Shown here: in pieces, positions 39,988 to 53,230 of the stretch | Layout: each line of letters starts with the position of its first letter | How positions within the stretch are numbered: position 1 is the first letter of the stretch | From: a virus | Taxonomy: Duplodnaviria; Caudoviricetes | Length of the DNA stretch: 64,000 bases | Strand: one strand, 5' to 3' | Virus record (IMG/VR): IMGVR_UViG_3300029305_011823 | Program-made: the position numbers and the translations under genes | Notes under the pieces: generated by a model | Told to the model about the DNA's origin: nothing | Database searches by the model: none | The model's input: the letters and a program-made list of their open reading frames with translations, nothing else

Positions 39988-40164
39988 TTATACTAATAAT
40001 AAATAAAATACAACGTAAAATGTTATTATTATAAATGAAATTATAGTTGTTGCTATTTTTTTATCTTGAATACTTTTAATGAATGCATAAACTGTTAATC
40101 CAGCACCTATAATATATAATATTACAAATATAATTAATAATATTAAAATATTTACAGGAATCAT
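39988..40164 (-). CDS. small two-TM membrane protein (not in ORF track)
   Basis: MIPVNILILLIIFVILYIIGAGLTVYAFIKSIQDKKIATTIISF..., 58 aa; ATGA overlap with upstream stop; AGGAGG RBS. Confidence 0.75.
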   Translation of the reverse strand: MIPVNILILLIIFVILYIIGAGLTVYAFIKSIQDKKIATTIISFIIITFYVVFYLLLV

Positions 40165-40898
40165 TTAGATACCTCCTTTGTAGTTATAATAGGTTCATAT
40201 TTACTATTTACTCTTCCAACAACCCAATGTTGAAATATAGTTACTATAATATAACCTAATACAACTGCTAAATAACAAAACTGAATTGGAATATTTATAC
40301 CTAAATTTATTAAATGTAATGGCATTCTAGTTGTCGATGTATAATTTGTGCCGAATATAAAATTAATTATTGTATTAATCGTTAACAAAATAGTTGTTAT
40401 TATACAACACATTTTTACATCCTCTCTAGTTGAACCAATCTTTTTGACAAACAGATAGTTGCCTGATATTAACATAATATATACGTGTAATAATACAGTT
40501 GTTATTTGTAATATATGCGGGAAAGGATATTTAAATATTGTAGGGAATATTAACCCTGCTATACCCCCATAAAATCCCCAATAACTACCTAATTTTAGAC
40601 AAAACTTATTATTACAAAATATGCCTATTGTAAATAAATACAACACTATTCTACATGTATACAGAGGTAATCCTTTTAGAAACAAACTCTCAGGTCCTAT
40701 TATATACCAACCATATAATATAATTTGTAATCCTAATATAAATAAAGTTGATATTTTTTCAATAAAAATATTTTGTTTTTGATATTTAACCATCCAATTT
40801 AAAAAGGTAAAACTTCCGACCAATAAACATATGTGCCATAATCCTAATAAATGTAGACCGCTTTCGGATTGAATTGTAGCAAACATAACTCTCATCAT
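40161..40898 (-). CDS. YwaF/TMEM164-like integral membrane protein
   Basis: Multiple TM segments; LPLYTC motif, conserved H, N..FGTNY. Confidence 0.7.
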   Translation of the reverse strand: MMRVMFATIQSESGLHLLGLWHICLLVGSFTFLNWMVKYQKQNIFIEKISTLFILGLQIILYGWYIIGPESLFLKGLPLYTCRIVLYLFTIGIFCNNKFCLKLGSYWGFYGGIAGLIFPTIFKYPFPHILQITTVLLHVYIMLISGNYLFVKKIGSTREDVKMCCIITTILLTINTIINFIFGTNYTSTTRMPLHLINLGINIPIQFCYLAVVLGYIIVTIFQHWVVGRVNSKYEPIITTKEVSK

Positions 40899-41669: not shown

Positions 41670-44066
41670 TTATTTAAACCATATTTCGTCCCCATACTGC
41701 TTGATAGTCCTATCAGTTGTAAATGGGAAACTGTTTGCTATATTTATTAAACATTTTTTGTTCCATTCTCTTCTGTTATTTTTGTATAAACTATTCATTT
41801 CATATGTTTTATCAAGATATTCTTGTAAATCTGTTAATGTGAAGAAATGGTCATTTGACATTAATTCCCAATATAATTCTTCACCAGCTCTATCAATTTG
41901 TTTTAACATTTCCATTGCTTTTTCTATCTTGTTGTTTGTTTTAACTATATGTCTTCCACTTAAATCTGTCCATGTAGCATATCTATTTAAAACTTCATCT
42001 TTACGTAAACCGAATAAGAATATATTTTCTTCTCCTACATATTCAGTTATCTCAACATTAGCACCATCTAATGTACCTAATGTTAAAGCACCATTCATCA
42101 TGAATTTCATATTTGATGTTCCAGATGCTTCTTTAGATGCAGTTGGTATTTGTTCAGATATATCTGTAGCAGGTATTATTAATTCTGCTTTAGAAACATT
42201 GTAATCTTCTATAAATACAAGTTTCATTTTTCCATTTACTCGTTCGTCATTATTTATAACTTTTGCTAATTTATTAAATACTTTTATAACATTCTTAGCT
42301 GATCTATAACTAGCTGCCGCTTTACCAGCCATTATAAATGTCATAGGATAAAATTCTTTTTCTGGATTTTCTAATAAATCGTTGTATATCATCATTATTC
42401 TTAATACGTTCATTATTTGTCTTTTATACATATGAATACGTTTTATCTGAACGTCGAATATACTATTAGGATCTAAATCCAATCCTGTCTCTCTTATAAA
42501 TCTTTGTTTATTAAGCATTTTAATATCATTTATTGTCCATAATATTGCACCTGTATCATGGAATTGTTCTAATTCTTTCATTTGTTTAAGATCCTGTTTC
42601 CAACCTTCTCCTAATATTGTAGTTATGAATCTAGTTAAATCAGGATTTGCTAATAATAACCATCTTCTATGTGCTATACCATTTGTTTTGTTATTAAATG
42701 CTTGTGGTTTATCCATATAGAAATCTTTAAGAGTTTCTTCTTCTAATATTTCTGTGTGTAATGCAGCAACTCCGTTTATACTATAGCTACACATACAATC
42801 CATATTAGCCATACGTACGTTTCCGTAGTTATCTATTATTTTCATTCTATCTATTTTAGATGTATTATATCCTTTTACTTTTCTTAAATACTCTACATAT
42901 CTTCTGTCTATTTCTTGTATTATCATATATATTCTTGGAATTAAAGATTGTAACATATACCCACTCCATACTTCAAGAGCTTCTTGCATTATTGTGTGGT
43001 TTGTATAACTACAAACTTTAGTTGTTACATTCCAAGCTTCATCCCATCCTAATCCTTCTTCATCCATTAACACCCTCATTAATTCAGGTATAACTAAAGA
43101 TGGATGTGTATCATTTATATGAACTGCAAGATGTTTATCTAGTTCTCTTAAATTCACTCCACGTTTTTTGAATTTATTAACTAAAGATTGTATACCTGCA
43201 GAACATAGGAAATATTCTTGTTTTAATCTTAATTCTTTACCTTCATGTGTAGAATCATCTGGATAAAGATTCTCACATATTTGATTTATTAATGTCCTTC
43301 TTCTTTGCATGTTATTATCATGACAATAGTTTATTCCACATTCATCAAGAATATTATAAGAAGGCATATCAGCTTCCCAAGTTCTTAAATAGTTCACTGT
43401 ATTATTTTCATAACCAGGAACTGGTATATCATATGCTCTTGCTACTATTGGTTCATAGTTTTCAAGAATTGGAACTAAATCATTTCCATTAGTTTCAAAT
43501 CTAACCGAACCTCTAAGTTTGATTATATATTCTTCACCTGATTTTGAATCCCAAGCATAATAACCATTCTTAAGCCATCTATCAGGTAACTCAACTTGCT
43601 CATCATTAAATATTTCTTGTTTGAACAACCCATGTCTATATCTTATAGTTTGACCATAACCTGCATATTCTAAACACGCCATTGAATCTATGAAACAAGC
43701 AGCTAATCTACCTAATCCTCCGTTTGCTATAGCTGGTTCTGGTTCTACTTCAACTAATTCATTTAAATCCCAATCAAGGTCATCCATAACTTCATTCACT
43801 ACATCTTCTAATCCTCTATTTAAAATTATTGATTTAAGTTGTTTTCCTAATAAGAACTCTATTGAAAAATAATGTACCTCTTTCTTCCCTTCAAGATTTT
43901 GATTACATCTTTTCCAATCTTCTGACATTGTATCTTTTAAAGAATTTGCTAAAACGTCAAATCTTTCAAATACATTTAATTGATCTACATTCTTTTGAAA
44001 TATTTTAGTTGCGTTTTTTTCAATTAACTTTTTAAAATTATCAACTCTATCAAATTCTTTTATCAT
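41670..44066 (-). CDS. glgP: glycogen/maltodextrin phosphorylase
   Basis: YFSIEFLLG, NGGLGRLAACF, RLKQEY, INDTHP, YTNHT, NGVAALH, QIKRIHMYKRQ, PLP site EASGTSNMKFMMNG. Confidence 0.95.
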   Translation of the reverse strand: MIKEFDRVDNFKKLIEKNATKIFQKNVDQLNVFERFDVLANSLKDTMSEDWKRCNQNLEGKKEVHYFSIEFLLGKQLKSIILNRGLEDVVNEVMDDLDWDLNELVEVEPEPAIANGGLGRLAACFIDSMACLEYAGYGQTIRYRHGLFKQEIFNDEQVELPDRWLKNGYYAWDSKSGEEYIIKLRGSVRFETNGNDLVPILENYEPIVARAYDIPVPGYENNTVNYLRTWEADMPSYNILDECGINYCHDNNMQRRRTLINQICENLYPDDSTHEGKELRLKQEYFLCSAGIQSLVNKFKKRGVNLRELDKHLAVHINDTHPSLVIPELMRVLMDEEGLGWDEAWNVTTKVCSYTNHTIMQEALEVWSGYMLQSLIPRIYMIIQEIDRRYVEYLRKVKGYNTSKIDRMKIIDNYGNVRMANMDCMCSYSINGVAALHTEILEEETLKDFYMDKPQAFNNKTNGIAHRRWLLLANPDLTRFITTILGEGWKQDLKQMKELEQFHDTGAILWTINDIKMLNKQRFIRETGLDLDPNSIFDVQIKRIHMYKRQIMNVLRIMMIYNDLLENPEKEFYPMTFIMAGKAAASYRSAKNVIKVFNKLAKVINNDERVNGKMKLVFIEDYNVSKAELIIPATDISEQIPTASKEASGTSNMKFMMNGALTLGTLDGANVEITEYVGEENIFLFGLRKDEVLNRYATWTDLSGRHIVKTNNKIEKAMEMLKQIDRAGEELYWELMSNDHFFTLTDLQEYLDKTYEMNSLYKNNRREWNKKCLINIANSFPFTTDRTIKQYGDEIWFK

Positions 44067-44130
44067 ATTAATTATTCTCCTTTTCCTATTCCATAATTTT
44101 ATTAATTCATTGTATATACCCATATAAATT

Positions 44131-46567: not shown

Positions 46568-46676
46568 GGTATCTACCTCCAAATATTTTTATTTTACTTC
46601 ATCTATATAATATAGCATTGAAATAGCACCTTTTTACAGTAATAAAATAAGTTATGGTGACTTAAATCACCATAAC

Positions 46677-46865
46677 TTATTCTTTATTTTTATCATGATT
46701 TTTCTTTATTACTAAATATAGTTCTTTCAATTTAAGGAATATTGCTGCACAAGCTACAGCAGATAATAAACCTTTCATAACCACGTCTTGTATAACGATT
46801 AATCCTGTGACTAATAACATACCTATTATAAGCACATCGCAAACTAAATTGAAAGTTCCTTTCAT
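46677..46865 (-). CDS. small two-TM membrane protein
   Basis: 62 aa, hydrophobic with basic tail. Confidence 0.7.
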   Translation of the reverse strand: MKGTFNLVCDVLIIGMLLVTGLIVIQDVVMKGLLSAVACAAIFLKLKELYLVIKKNHDKNKE

Positions 46866-46867
46866 CT

Positions 46868-47074
46868 CTACTCACCCTTATGTCTTATTTTGTAATGCCC
46901 ATATATTCCTAATCCAGCTAATCCTATTAAACCTAATAGGAATCCGATTGCTGCCCAAATTCTAGCGTCAAAATTCATTCCATGTTCAACATTTAATTTC
47001 TCTGCCCATCTAAATCCTATGAATCCAAATAATATCCAAGCTATTAATTGTATTAACATTTCCATTTTTTTCAC
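46868..47074 (-). CDS. small two-TM membrane protein
   Basis: 68 aa; W...GFLLG.IGL pattern. Confidence 0.7.
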   Translation of the reverse strand: MKKMEMLIQLIAWILFGFIGFRWAEKLNVEHGMNFDARIWAAIGFLLGLIGLAGLGIYGHYKIRHKGE

Positions 47075-47113
47075 GCTCCTTTTCTAAATAATTGTATATC
47101 GTATTATAAAAAA

Positions 47114-47782
47114 TTATTCTGATATATAAAATACAATCAATCTACCATTCTTAACACTATAATCACATGTATATAATCCAACTATATGACTATTCTCATC
47201 ATATTCAACACCATTAATAAAATAATCACTATTTTGTTTTATCAATGCCACAGCATCAGATGTTTCCATATTGTCAATTTGTTTATAAAAGAAATTGTTA
47301 TTTGTAACATAATAAGCAAACGGCTTGAATGTTTTTGTATTTTCTGCCGTTTCTATAGTCAATACAGACTCTTTAAATCTTTGATGGTCTTTTTGAAAAT
47401 AATGTAAGTTATTAAACATTGTTCCATTTTTCATACTATGTCCGTACAACATTGTATACTTACCATCAAAAGGTTCATCACTAGAGCAATAGAATATAGC
47501 TCCACTATTGCTTTCATTCCCTTGATAATCGTGATTGATATAAAAAATATTATCTGTATATGTCATAACAGGATAGTCTATAGCAGTTCCTTCTACTGTT
47601 ATCCAATCATATCCATGCTCTTTTAAATACTTACTAGTATCATTTGATCGTGTTTTTTCGTTTTGTACTTCTTCATAAGTTTTCTTAGCTTTATAATATT
47701 CCCATTGCTTTTGACCAATTTCCCATGAACTTATAGATAATACTGCAATTAATATTACATTTATAACATTCTTTAATTTCAT
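47114..47782 (-). CDS. srtB: class B sortase
   Basis: N-terminal TM; WI.V.GT.IDYPV, FYINHD, SGAIF, YGHSM..GTMF..L (His), LYTC (Cys), GR (Arg). Confidence 0.9.
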   Translation of the reverse strand: MKLKNVINVILIAVLSISSWEIGQKQWEYYKAKKTYEEVQNEKTRSNDTSKYLKEHGYDWITVEGTAIDYPVMTYTDNIFYINHDYQGNESNSGAIFYCSSDEPFDGKYTMLYGHSMKNGTMFNNLHYFQKDHQRFKESVLTIETAENTKTFKPFAYYVTNNNFFYKQIDNMETSDAVALIKQNSDYFINGVEYDENSHIVGLYTCDYSVKNGRLIVFYISE

Positions 47783-47845
47783 AAATTATACCTCCTATAC
47801 TAAAATAAAAAATAGAGTGGAGAATCTTTCTCCACTCTATTTTAC

Positions 47846-48439
47846 TTATTCTTCATCTTTCTTTTTATTAACTACAAATAATCCTATACTTGCTGCTGCT
47901 ACTGTTATTGCTCCAACCATCATACCAGCATCTCCTGTATTTGGATCATGTATTTCTGGTTCTTCTTCTACTGGTGGATCGACTGGTTCGTCATCTTTAA
48001 AATCAGGCACACCGTTTCCATCTTCATCTTGTGGATATTTATAATCTATTCCTATTTTTACAGTTTTTACATCTGATGCTCCAAGAGGATCGTCAAGATC
48101 GTCAAGATCTACACTATTACGTATCAATCCAGACCCATTATTTTCTACATTTATTTTTTCCATTGGTACATTAACTTCAGATCCATCTTTTAATATTAAT
48201 TTAACGTATGTTATATTATAATTTTCAACCCATGCTGCTTTTATATCTGCTAATAAAATATTAGATGGTCCATCTAGTTCTAAAAAAACATTGTTATCTT
48301 GGAATATGAACACTTCATCTAATTTTATATTTTCAACAATTAACGCATCATTAACATGTACATCGTCTGCAAATACATTTCCGCTCATTCCAAATACTAA
48401 TAAACCTGCTACTAATAAACTTTTAACTTTTTTGTTCAT
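47846..48439 (-). CDS. cell-wall-anchored protein (sortase substrate)
   Basis: Signal peptide ending VFA; Pro/acidic linker; sorting signal DPNTGD, hydrophobic TM, KKK tail. Confidence 0.85.
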   Translation of the reverse strand: MNKKVKSLLVAGLLVFGMSGNVFADDVHVNDALIVENIKLDEVFIFQDNNVFLELDGPSNILLADIKAAWVENYNITYVKLILKDGSEVNVPMEKINVENNGSGLIRNSVDLDDLDDPLGASDVKTVKIGIDYKYPQDEDGNGVPDFKDDEPVDPPVEEEPEIHDPNTGDAGMMVGAITVAAASIGLFVVNKKKDEE

Positions 48440-48524
48440 ATAAAATCTCTCCTTTTTAATTTATATTTTTTATTTAGTTTTCTCGATGCTTTTCTATTAA
48501 TATTTTGTTATTTGTTATATAAAA

Positions 48525-49004
48525 TTATATAAACTCGTAATTATTATTTATTATTTCTTCTATTTCAATCATTAGTTCATTCATTCTATCTAATACTAAA
48601 GTTATTTCTTCTTCTATTTCAGCTTTTTCTTGTTCGTTTGCAGCTATTGTATATTTTAATCCTAATTCCATTAATTCGTCTAAGCAATTATCTAATTCTA
48701 TAGTTAGTTTTTGTGTTGGTTTGATTCTATTTTTTGTCATATAATCAAATAAATTAATCGCATCGTTCATTGTTAAATCTTCGTCTTCTGTTATTGTAAA
48801 TAACACATTATCTATCAATCTCATTATTGCAAAATATTCTTGTTCTAAAACAACAACATCAATTTCTTGTTGAATATTTTCTTTTGTTGGTTCAGGTTCA
48901 TTATTTTGACATCCTGTCAACCCTAAACAACATAAAGTTAAGATAAGGGCTAAACCTATAATTGCTATATTTTTTATCAATTTTCCAATTATAATCTTTT
49001 TCAT
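48525..49004 (-). CDS. lipoprotein
   Basis: Basic N-terminus, hydrophobic stretch, lipobox LTGC. Confidence 0.75.
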   Translation of the reverse strand: MKKIIIGKLIKNIAIIGLALILTLCCLGLTGCQNNEPEPTKENIQQEIDVVVLEQEYFAIMRLIDNVLFTITEDEDLTMNDAINLFDYMTKNRIKPTQKLTIELDNCLDELMELGLKYTIAANEQEKAEIEEEITLVLDRMNELMIEIEEIINNNYEFI

Positions 49005-49076
49005 TTATATCATTCCCCTTTCTATTCTAAATATTTGTTATATATGTTATAAAAAAATAAGATACCTTGAGGTATC

Positions 49077-49703
49077 TTATTTCCATTCCATTCCATACAT
49101 GTCTTCGTATATTTTGTTGAATTCTTCTTCATTCATTATTATTTTTCTTGACTCATTTAACATGTCTTCTGCATATTTTGTATTGAATCTAGCATATCCT
49201 TTTTCTCCATATTTGTCTTGTAAATGACTTATTACTTCTTCATATATTTCTTTGTTGTTTTTATCTGGATAATGTTTTCTGTTCCATTTATATGTTCTTT
49301 CTATCATTGTGTATATATCATTCATTCTGTCTGCGTCTGAAACTATCTTGCTATATATACTTGTGTATTCTCCTTTGTAACTTGCTCTATGCTCTTCTAC
49401 TGCTTTTGCTATTATTTCAATTTGCTCTTCGTTAAAGTATTCTTTTAACTCTTCTTCTCTTCTTACGATTTCACCTGATTTTAGGTGATGTGTTTCTCTG
49501 TCATATTTTAATCCTAGGTCGTGCATTGCTGCTATTGTTTTTACCATGTTTATGTTTAACTCAACATGTTCATCTTTCATCATGTTTTTTGCAATGTATT
49601 CTGAATTTTGTATTACCATTCTTGCATGATCTTTGTTGTGTGCTGGATCGAAACTTTCATATCTTTCTATTATACTTTCTAAATATTGATTTAATTTTTT
49701 CAT
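49077..49703 (-). CDS. HD-domain phosphohydrolase
   Basis: AH..DH, AAMHDLG, HH, EEHR, SDADR. Confidence 0.9.
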   Translation of the reverse strand: MKKLNQYLESIIERYESFDPAHNKDHARMVIQNSEYIAKNMMKDEHVELNINMVKTIAAMHDLGLKYDRETHHLKSGEIVRREEELKEYFNEEQIEIIAKAVEEHRASYKGEYTSIYSKIVSDADRMNDIYTMIERTYKWNRKHYPDKNNKEIYEEVISHLQDKYGEKGYARFNTKYAEDMLNESRKIIMNEEEFNKIYEDMYGMEWK

Positions 49704-52546: not shown

Positions 52547-53230
52547 CTACATAACTTTACAAAATGCAAATTTTACTATCTTTCCAGATTCTGAATCATA
52601 CCATACCCAACCACCATCGCTTATTAGATAAACCTTTTCCCTGTGAAACAATTTAAATCTTCTAGCAGATTCTAAAATTTTATTTCTCTGCTCAATATCC
52701 CAAGGATTGTAATGTGGTAAGATTACAAAATCTTTTATAAATCTTATTCCCCTAAAGCACTTATATCCAGCATAATCATTATCAGGATATACGAAAAATC
52801 TTCTACTCCAAAACATAGATCCAGCCGATTCCCCTACAACTATTTTACATTGTTTTATCATGTTGGTTAATTTAAGTTCTTTTAATATTTTTACTATATT
52901 TTCTGGAAATCCTCCTGGTAGATAAACTATCGTATTATCTGCAAGAAGTTTATGTTTTATTAATCCTATAGAATCTGTAAATCTATTAATAACTACAACC
53001 CTATCAGGATTTATACCTATATTAACAAAAGGTTCTATAGTTTTCCAAAATATAGATTCCTTATTAAATGGATTTCTGTCAAAACGTTTATAAATATCTT
53101 CAGCACACCTTAAATACTCAAAATGATTTGCAAATGGAAGAACCACTAATTGAGTTTGACTATTTATATTCTCCTTTAAATAATCTATGGATTCAACTCC
53201 ACTTGAAACGCTTGTTAAAAATAATTGCAT
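52547..53230 (-). CDS. peptidase E/S51-like (class I GATase fold)
   Basis: YLPGG, VGESAGS nucleophile elbow, ILPHY. Confidence 0.8.
   Translation of the reverse strand: MQLFLTSVSSGVESIDYLKENINSQTQLVVLPFANHFEYLRCAEDIYKRFDRNPFNKESIFWKTIEPFVNIGINPDRVVVINRFTDSIGLIKHKLLADNTIVYLPGGFPENIVKILKELKLTNMIKQCKIVVGESAGSMFWSRRFFVYPDNDYAGYKCFRGIRFIKDFVILPHYNPWDIEQRNKILESARRFKLFHREKVYLISDGGWVWYDSESGKIVKFAFCKVM

Follow-up and report, generated by a model that had tools for sequence, protein, structure and literature searches.

Several phages equip the envelope of their host cell, infected or lysogenic, with proteins of their own. SasX of S. aureus is a prophage-borne LPXTG protein, and Llp of phage T5 and Ltp of phage TP-J34 are exclusion lipoproteins that block phage entry and shield progeny from debris; all three reach the envelope via host sortase or Lgt, and no phage wall-linking enzyme takes part. 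Here we describe a locus in which a phage encodes both a predicted class B sortase (SrtB) and, in the gene immediately upstream, a 197-amino-acid (aa) protein with the features of a sortase substrate. The locus lies on the minus strand of a stretch of 64,000 nucleotides (the window) from IMG/VR virus record IMGVR_UViG_3300029305_011823 (Duplodnaviria; Caudoviricetes). We consider it probable, at roughly 0.75, that this private sortase covalently anchors a phage-encoded display domain, one that is frequently exchanged, to the infected cell's wall. For the anchored protein we tentatively favour the role of Llp and Ltp, which the neighbouring lipoprotein may share. No sequence similarity to SasX, Llp or Ltp was found: the substrate has no PHROG match, and the lipoprotein has only a sub-threshold one (phrog_6360, E = 7 × 10−4).

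The nearest characterised mechanism is that of C. difficile SrtB, which acts on (S/P)PxTG substrates (PMC4155245, PMC4591827; structures 4ux7 and 5gyj). The window sortase resembles this general anchoring sortase in the class B fold (4ux7, E = 5 × 10−16, TMq 0.72), in the use of an xPxTG rather than an NPQTN motif, and in the low-GC anaerobic background. However, the window sortase, which is ~30% identical to it, is virus-encoded and has a single dedicated substrate; it is further distinguished by an invariant Asp at both ends of the DPxTGD motif and by the strand TCDYS. Spy0129 of the S. pyogenes Spy0129/FctA system (3psq) is as good a structural match in the class B fold (E = 1.8 × 10−15), and there, too, the sortase is a dedicated one whose gene adjoins that of its substrate, but no pilin fold or motif was found in the 197-aa protein and the locus contains no accessory pilins.

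The kind of gene pair described here is not new. In a preprint of 24 Oct 2026, Yuan & Chen reported 24 SrtB genes in 24 animal-gut huge phages, with substrates of 175 to 1,047 aa, encoded upstream of SrtB, in which a variable region lies between a signal peptide and a PXTG signal, and proposed surface display, possibly for receptor masking (bioRxiv 10.64898/2026.10.24.761521). The pairing of a phage SrtB with a PXTG substrate is thus already published as a computational prediction, and the statement in the original prediction, which was made from the letters of the window, that no characterised example was known is out of date. The huge-phage modules are like the window locus in the His/Cys/Arg triad, the upstream position of the substrate, and the PXTG motif followed by a transmembrane segment and a basic tail; their smallest substrate has 175 aa, whereas forms of 155-174 aa are present among the homologues found here. 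The preprint does not include the DPxTGD motif, the near-invariant signal peptide, the cassette exchange, the hairpin between the genes or the AR9-type promoters.

An intact class B sortase and its predicted substrate

The two central genes and their parts are as follows.

47114-47782, minus strand: class B sortase, 222 aa (Pfam, NCBIfam, fold and triad)
aa 6-22 of the sortase: N-terminal membrane anchor (transmembrane segment), from hydrophobicity
47438-47440, minus strand: sortase H115 (YGHSM)
47165-47167, minus strand: sortase C206 (TCDYS)
47141-47143, minus strand: sortase R214 (GRL)
47846-48439, minus strand: sortase substrate, 197 aa
48368-48439, minus strand: substrate signal peptide, aa 1-24 (KK, hydrophobic at 8-24, ending in VFA, then DD)
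aa ~25-135 of the substrate: variable all-beta passenger
48002-48028, minus strand: DxDxNG loop DEDGNGVPD, aa 138-146
between this loop and DPNTG: Pro/Glu stalk
47933-47947, minus strand: DPNTG sorting motif, aa 165-169
aa 174-190 of the substrate: C-terminal transmembrane segment (at least 17 hydrophobic residues), then KKKDEE

The sortase passes the Pfam Sortase model (PF04203; 38 bits vs. a gathering cut-off of 26.6), and its best NCBIfam match is to the class B family TIGR03064 (E = 9 × 10−38). The residues H115, C206 and R214 are invariant across 14 homologues and are in register with the YGH, TC and R of the solved SrtB structures 5jcv and 1rz2. In the AlphaFold model (predicted local distance difference test (pLDDT) 84, predicted template-modelling score 0.82), a long N-terminal helix, the putative membrane anchor, is followed by a sortase barrel. 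Comparison of this model to the PDB placed class B sortases at all ranks from 1 to 18 (E = 3 × 10−18 to 7 × 10−13, template-modelling score TMt 0.58-0.81), headed by the C. perfringens structure 5b23 (E = 3 × 10−18, TMt 0.81), whereas the best sortase structure outside class B reached E = 5.5 × 10−8. By sequence, triad and predicted fold, the enzyme is an intact class B sortase, as originally predicted, and it is membrane-anchored.

A HMMER search against 1.84 billion representatives retrieved five clusters at 166-209 bits and 42-50% identity; the next full-length proteins scored at most ~110 bits with 33-39% identity, and one of these, P0264, comes from a bacterial assembly, where its gene neighbours that of a VWA surface protein. 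Judging by this gap in bit score and identity to the nearest cellular SrtBs, the phage SrtBs form their own branch of class B and are not recent captures. The DNA of the locus had no match among 50,697 phage records, and a protein search returned sortases at 26-40% identity only, mostly from unannotated 'phage' records and from Listeria and Streptococcus records. Pattern scans of the genomes of 185,579 species (GTDB) found no relative of the sortase clade or of the substrate family, which, the patterns being very specific, is weak evidence of absence.

The 197-aa protein bears every sequence hallmark of a sortase substrate. It has a Sec signal peptide and a C-terminal arrangement of PxTG motif, hydrophobic segment and basic tail, it barely passes the Gram_pos_anchor model (PF00746; 20.7 vs. 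a cut-off of 20), and it is the sole protein with a PxTG-like motif, a transmembrane segment and a basic tail among the 391 open reading frames (ORFs) of the 128-kb record. The signal peptide, Ca-type loop, stalk and DPNTGD signal with transmembrane segment and KKK that had been attributed to it were all located. Of the 79 substrates over which sorting motifs were counted, 50 carry DPETGD, 12 DPNTGD, 4 DPQTGD, 2 DPGTGD, 2 EPETGD and 1 DPATGD, and 4 carry TPGTGQ. These motifs precede a transmembrane segment and a tail that is K/R-rich and then acidic, and 72 of the 79 have a DPxTGD, EPETGD or TPGTGQ terminus completed by a transmembrane segment and a K/R tail; the TPGTGQ substrates are longer than the DPxTGD ones.

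Recurrence of the substrate-sortase pair

Word-indexed searches yielded 86 sortase and 78 substrate homologues, nearly all metagenomic. The search for phage SrtB genes paired with PxTG substrates that had been proposed as a check thus found recurring pairs across the lineages examined. The loci compared to the window were these.

L008: sortase 76% identical to that of the window
L013: sortase of 222 aa
L009: sortase 53% identical
L010 and L004-L007: sortase 52% identical, contigs of 216-331 kb, seen repeatedly
L011: sortase 48% identical
L014: sortase 42% identical

In every intact locus examined, the substrate gene lies immediately upstream of the sortase gene, with one substrate locus per record. 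The original prediction had grouped the pair with a lipoprotein and two small membrane proteins in a five-gene display module; this larger module is unsupported because only the substrate, the hairpin between the two genes and the sortase are kept in four other sortase lineages (L008, L010, L011 and L013; 47-76% identity in the sortase). From these comparisons, the functional unit is substrate-hairpin-sortase. The flanks of L010 differ from those of the window, with a protein of six transmembrane segments upstream and other small ORFs downstream. The 221-aa protein with six hydrophobic segments that replaces the lipoprotein upstream of the substrate in this ~330-kb phage (L010 3640-4305, equal to L004 8649-9314) received no family assignment.

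The pair also occurs at L014 5001-6534, on a second phage backbone that has RecA, ATP-dependent ligase, ThyA and DHFR genes. The substrate there, P0164 (283 aa), shares its signal peptide with the DPxTGD family, and its C-terminus consists of TPGTGQ, a transmembrane segment and a basic tail. P0164, the one TPGTGQ protein whose locus was read, is the partner of the sortase with the greatest divergence (42%). Motif and enzyme therefore covary, in support of cognate recognition. At 193 aa, this sortase may have been called without its membrane anchor.

In one lineage (L009, record G002) the sortase is intact and the substrate gene is broken. At L009 4293-4990 (equal to G002:C1:52409-52979; loci L022 and L024), the substrate profile aligns to two frames that overlap and are interrupted by several stop codons; the record has 135 kb and direct terminal repeats. 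The pair is therefore dispensable or decaying in that phage, or else the sortase has other clients. Under the latter possibility, the sortase would mainly serve host proteins, rewiring host display with the neighbouring protein as an optional client, or a host sortase would handle the neighbour; the xPxTG motifs used by housekeeping SrtB in Clostridia (PMC4155245, PMC4591827) are compatible with either version. We regard this explanation as unlikely given that the remaining lineages all keep the two genes strictly adjacent and have a single substrate for each sortase, and given the shift of the motif with the sortase type (DPxTGD vs. TPGTGQ), the distance of the phage SrtB clade from cellular enzymes, and the lack of a DPxTGD substrate-family protein in the pattern scans of species genomes.

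Exchange of the displayed domain

Comparison of the substrates shows that the two ends of the protein are conserved and that the region between them is not: the signal peptide is near-invariant (MNKK[IV]KSLLVAGLLV.GMSGNVFA), and so is the anchor. Across 12 sortase/substrate pairs, of which 8 were paired by the equal size of their contigs and not from locus DNA, the mean identities were 76% for the signal peptide, 57% for the sortase, 58% for the anchor and 36% for the passenger, and sortase and passenger identities were uncorrelated (Spearman 0.15, P = 0.23). The window and L008 share 76% identity in the sortase and 25% in the passenger, and L008 and L011 share 47% in the sortase and 83% in the passenger. 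Sliding DNA-identity profiles delimit the exchanged region.

48017-48360, minus strand: swappable passenger cassette inside the substrate gene, from profiles against L008 and L012

Compared to L012, the window DNA is 93-100% identical in the lipoprotein gene and 88-93% identical in the signal peptide. From ~48360 to ~48017 the identity falls to ~40%, the random level for this composition, before it recovers to 70-80% over the stalk and anchor; the profile against L008 has the same shape. Single-linkage clustering at 50% identity divided 76 sequences into 18 passenger types. By these sequence comparisons, phages that are nearly identical elsewhere exchange the displayed domain as a whole cassette, of which there are at least 18 types.

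Calcium-type DxDxNG loops are frequent in carbohydrate-binding and wall proteins; in the substrate family, which aligns as one small beta-rich domain with few common positions, a DxDxDG loop is present in some passenger types only. Structure prediction of the substrate, which had been suggested as a check, was informative in part: it gave an all-beta region of 8 strands at aa 32-134 (core pLDDT 60-77, mean 55), but no significant fold match in the PDB (Foldseek) or in an ESM Atlas shape search, the top rows being NEAT and CBM/Big_2 beta-sandwiches (E = 0.04-0.09, template-modelling score 0.2-0.3). Because the model is poor and the fold is not recognisable, it provides no functional clue. Identification of the passenger as a NEAT haem domain was rejected (no Pfam match; Foldseek E = 0.04, template-modelling score 0.22-0.30; YxxxY not conserved), and so, for want of support, was its identification as a CBM.

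The cargo might still bind haem in a NEAT-like manner, carbohydrate in a CBM-like manner or a gut surface, and thereby aid the survival or retention of infected or carrier cells. These top-ranking folds, the loop, and the fact that the classical SrtB cargo consists of haem-uptake proteins (bioRxiv 10.64898/2026.10.24.761521) are in line with this idea, whereas the fold matches are not significant, Pfam contains no NEAT or CBM match to the protein, and the YNITY (YxxxY) of the window protein is not conserved in the family. Furthermore, the rapid turnover of the cassette suits antagonistic co-evolution better than a fixed ligand, so that a nutritional or adhesive cargo appears improbable.

A single position stands out from the variability of this protein: K148 at the junction between domain and stalk (FKDDEP / TKGDEP) is invariant in a 32-sequence alignment of otherwise hypervariable sequences. 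Such a lysine could be expected under a pilus-like polymerisation in the manner of Spy0129, in which T168 would be joined to the lysine of the next subunit and a fibre would form instead of, or before, wall anchoring. Spy0129 is among the close structural matches of the window sortase (3psq, E = 1.8 × 10−15, TMt 0.80), and FctA-like pilin domains occur in longer phage SrtB substrates (bioRxiv 10.64898/2026.10.24.761521). However, the lysine motif is absent from several passenger types (e.g., P0143, P0155, P0163 and P0165), the passenger has no pilin, CnaB or FctA match, only 20 residues separate the lysine from the site of cleavage, which makes a stacked fibre geometrically unlikely, and neither a second (tip or base) pilin gene nor a second sortase is present. 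The stalk lysine, not being universal in the substrate family, was rejected as a pilin nucleophile, and we consider polymerisation quite improbable.

Promoter motifs and hairpins

The non-virion RNA polymerase (RNAP) of phage AR9 recognises 3'-UUGU-N6-AU-5' in the template, which corresponds to AACA (-11 to -8)-N6-TA (+1) in the coding strand (PMC9209446). Two such motifs and two hairpins mark the locus.

49028-49039, minus strand: AACA-N6-TA motif ahead of the lipoprotein gene (24-nt leader, +1 predicted at 49028)
48498-48509, minus strand: AACA-N6-TA motif upstream of the substrate gene, predicted +1 at 48498, 59-nt leader
47809-47843, minus strand: 16-bp hairpin with T run in the gap between substrate and sortase genes, terminator/attenuator-like
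46646-46681: terminator-like hairpin that closes the sortase/small-protein unit

Both motifs, which had been predicted to be phage promoters, are present and match the AR9 consensus, and the sequence TATATAACAAATA is common to the two promoter regions. Across the window AACA-N6-TA is not enriched (81 found vs. 92 expected); 20 of the 81 copies fall in the 8.2% of the DNA that is non-coding, a ~3-fold enrichment (binomial P = 6 × 10−6), and 16 precede an ORF by 12-90 nt and have its orientation. These copies share the extended form (T)ATAACAA-N5-TA. The sites are probably phage promoters, to judge from this concentration upstream of genes, and we infer that the phage's own polymerase uses them. 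L008 and L012 likewise have the motif, 60-73 nt ahead of the substrate ATG; no equivalent was found upstream of the substrate in L010, L011, L013 or L014.

Six terminator-like sites were found in the scanned region vs. 0.5 expected. A hairpin occupies the same position between substrate and sortase, with other stem sequences, in L008, L010/L004, L011 and L013, which argues that the arrangement is selected; no clear hairpin was seen in L014, although the substrate-sortase pair is retained there. The sortase gene has no AACA-N6-TA motif of its own and is placed behind the hairpin. Its transcription therefore probably depends on read-through, and its expression is probably weaker than that of the substrate. 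The second hairpin (46646-46681) was scored on the plus strand; on the minus strand it follows the stop codon of the last gene, for a 62-aa protein, and is followed by a T-rich run.

A locus of a large phage

The five ORFs named in the original prediction are real and lie on the minus strand at the coordinates that it gave. In minus-strand order, the region comprises an HD-domain gene, the lipoprotein gene, the substrate gene, the hairpin with T run, the sortase gene, the 65/68-aa gene, the 62-aa gene and the second terminator-like hairpin. Elsewhere in the window are genes of a phage: large terminase, tail sheath, virion structural protein, gyrase/topoisomerase subunits, NAD ligase, an SbcC-like protein, and two split RNAP beta-like subunits (phrog_3295 and phrog_3233), the phrog_3233 gene being directly upstream of the HD-domain gene.

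The possibility that the locus arose as an artefact of assembly or binning, or that it is host DNA acquired recently (a moron without a phage-specific role), deserves consideration given that sortases are typically cellular genes and that the record (G000, 128,249 bp) is 58% complete according to CheckV and classed as a provirus by IMG/VR. We find it hardly credible. The locus is embedded at 55-57 kb of the 128-kb record between the phage RNAP, gyrase and other phage genes, and its GC content (27-28%) is that of the remainder of the record (26-31% throughout the window). It carries the phage promoter motif, and the nearest cellular SrtB found is only 33-39% identical. The identical substrate protein occurs on 24 contigs read (33 blocks in the index) from several JGI and ENA samples, up to 323.6 kb in length, with the gene order from gyrase to glycogen phosphorylase unchanged. 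Because of these phage neighbours, the matching GC and the same synteny on many contigs, the locus is an integral part of a large AR9/PBS1-like phage of a low-GC gut bacterium, and a chimera with host DNA, which had been named as a refuting outcome, is dismissed.

The phage had also been described as a lytic-type jumbo phage, for which the support is indirect. The identical substrate and lipoprotein occur on contigs of 204.6 and 323.6 kb, so that a genome of more than 200 kb is probable, although the record itself has 128 kb. With respect to lifestyle, no tyrosine integrase (PF00589) was found in the record, which, the record being incomplete, does not settle the matter. The provirus label is probably a trimming artefact on a fragment of a huge phage, considering that no integrase was found and that contigs of 200-324 kb have this gene order as well.

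Neighbouring genes

The genes flanking the pair are the following.

49077-49703, minus strand: HD-domain gene, upstream of the lipoprotein gene
48525-49004, minus strand: predicted lipoprotein, 159 aa, lipobox LTGC with Cys32, acidic helical body
46868-47065, minus strand: 65-aa protein with two transmembrane segments (68 aa if read from GTG 47074)
46677-46865, minus strand: protein of 62 aa, hydrophobic in two segments and charged in its C-tail

The lipoprotein has a hydrophobic region at aa 13-29, and the lipobox claimed for it is present and retained in 86 of 87 homologues. It is present in L008 and L012 and is not beside the sortase in L010, L011 and L013. By this distribution, it is a lineage-specific neighbour outside the conserved core. 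Its microdiversity is unusually high (65 clusters at 87-100% identity in the protein collection) vs. the whole-cassette replacement in the substrate. In one source a homologue is labelled 'dimeric dUTPase', apparently a misannotation. The two small proteins do have two hydrophobic segments each, as predicted; ATG 47065 is the most likely start of the first, being the choice of the gene callers and fitting the Shine-Dalgarno spacing, so that the ORF first given as 68 aa most likely encodes 65 aa. This gene is absent from L008, where the alignment has a gap at ~47090-46920, and is thus an indel. The start of the 62-aa gene overlaps the stop region of the gene upstream, and among the loci examined its product is found only in close relatives (L008 and L012), its place behind the sortase being kept in L008 alone. 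Nothing supports a holin-like reading of the 62-aa protein, which had been considered for its two transmembrane segments and charged tail. Neither small protein belongs to a family in PHROGs, Pfam or NCBIfam, nor does the lipoprotein, beyond the phrog_6360 match given above.

Upstream of the lipoprotein gene, the HD-domain gene sits next to a 239-aa RNAP-like gene, at a boundary that is also an indel hot spot; it is missing from L012 (56-1327 compared), a contig otherwise 93-100% identical. Further away, 41670-44123 encodes a full-length glycogen phosphorylase, and the minus strand below 41670 (including 40161-40898) encodes an eIF-1a/IF1-like protein of 73 aa and then a TMEM164-family membrane protein, all three genes being kept in related contigs. 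A Peptidase_S51 gene lies at 52547-53230.

Proposed mechanism and significance

Under the reading that we favour, wall anchoring of an exchanged display domain by the phage's own sortase, the substrate gene would be transcribed during infection by the AR9-type RNAP of the phage from AACA-N6-TA, with +1 at 48498. Most transcripts would stop at the hairpin (47843-47809), and read-through would supply a smaller amount of sortase together with the two small membrane proteins. The 197-aa precursor would leave the cytoplasm via Sec, its signal peptide being cut after VFA24, and the C-terminal transmembrane segment and KKK tail would hold it in the membrane. There the sortase, a predicted type-II membrane protein with Cys206 as nucleophile together with His115 and Arg214, would cut DPNT/G between T168 and G169 and pass the substrate to lipid II or a putative peptidoglycan cross-bridge. 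The infected cell, and later its wall debris, would thus expose, on a short Pro/Glu stalk, a beta-sandwich of ~14 kDa that bears a loop of the Ca-binding type.

Several observations weigh against this reading. The sortase score to TIGR03064 (129.8 bits) is under the equivalog cut-off of 153.75, which is also missed by the relatives L010 (113.5) and L014 (89.9); the clade is therefore a divergent branch and not an equivalog. The passenger model is of low confidence and without a recognisable fold, the substrate gene is broken beside an intact sortase in G002/L009, and most of the sortase-substrate pairings behind the identity comparison come from contig sizes. Moreover, some true C. difficile SrtB substrates are described as released or membrane-bound and not wall-linked (PMC5569036).

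The export and anchor ends of the substrate are near-invariant and the display domain is swapped, and we therefore read the cargo as facing a variable partner outside the cell; the cassette turnover suggests an arms-race surface. For the purpose of the cargo, a change in the adsorption of competing or progeny phages, by exclusion or receptor masking, is the most likely candidate among those considered, if a tentative one; adhesion of the infected cell is less likely. In the more specific form of this proposal, which is equally tentative, the display domain would be a rapidly exchanged 'surface allele' with a fixed export signal, a fixed anchor and a private sortase, at least 18 unrelated-looking domains being recombined into this frame. 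The allele present could decide which competing phages, or which receptors on progeny-trapping debris, are blocked, and the whole would amount to a covalently wall-linked form of superinfection exclusion under frequency-dependent selection.

Sortases have been regarded as cellular enzymes, and a virus that carries both enzyme and substrate could remodel the surface of its Gram-positive gut host independently of host sorting. The turnover of the cassette directs the search for function towards an outward-facing, fast-evolving interaction, and nature offers many display domains that could be compared experimentally in one fixed frame. If its specificity is confirmed, the combination of DPxTGD and phage SrtB would also be a candidate orthogonal system for sortase-tag ligation.

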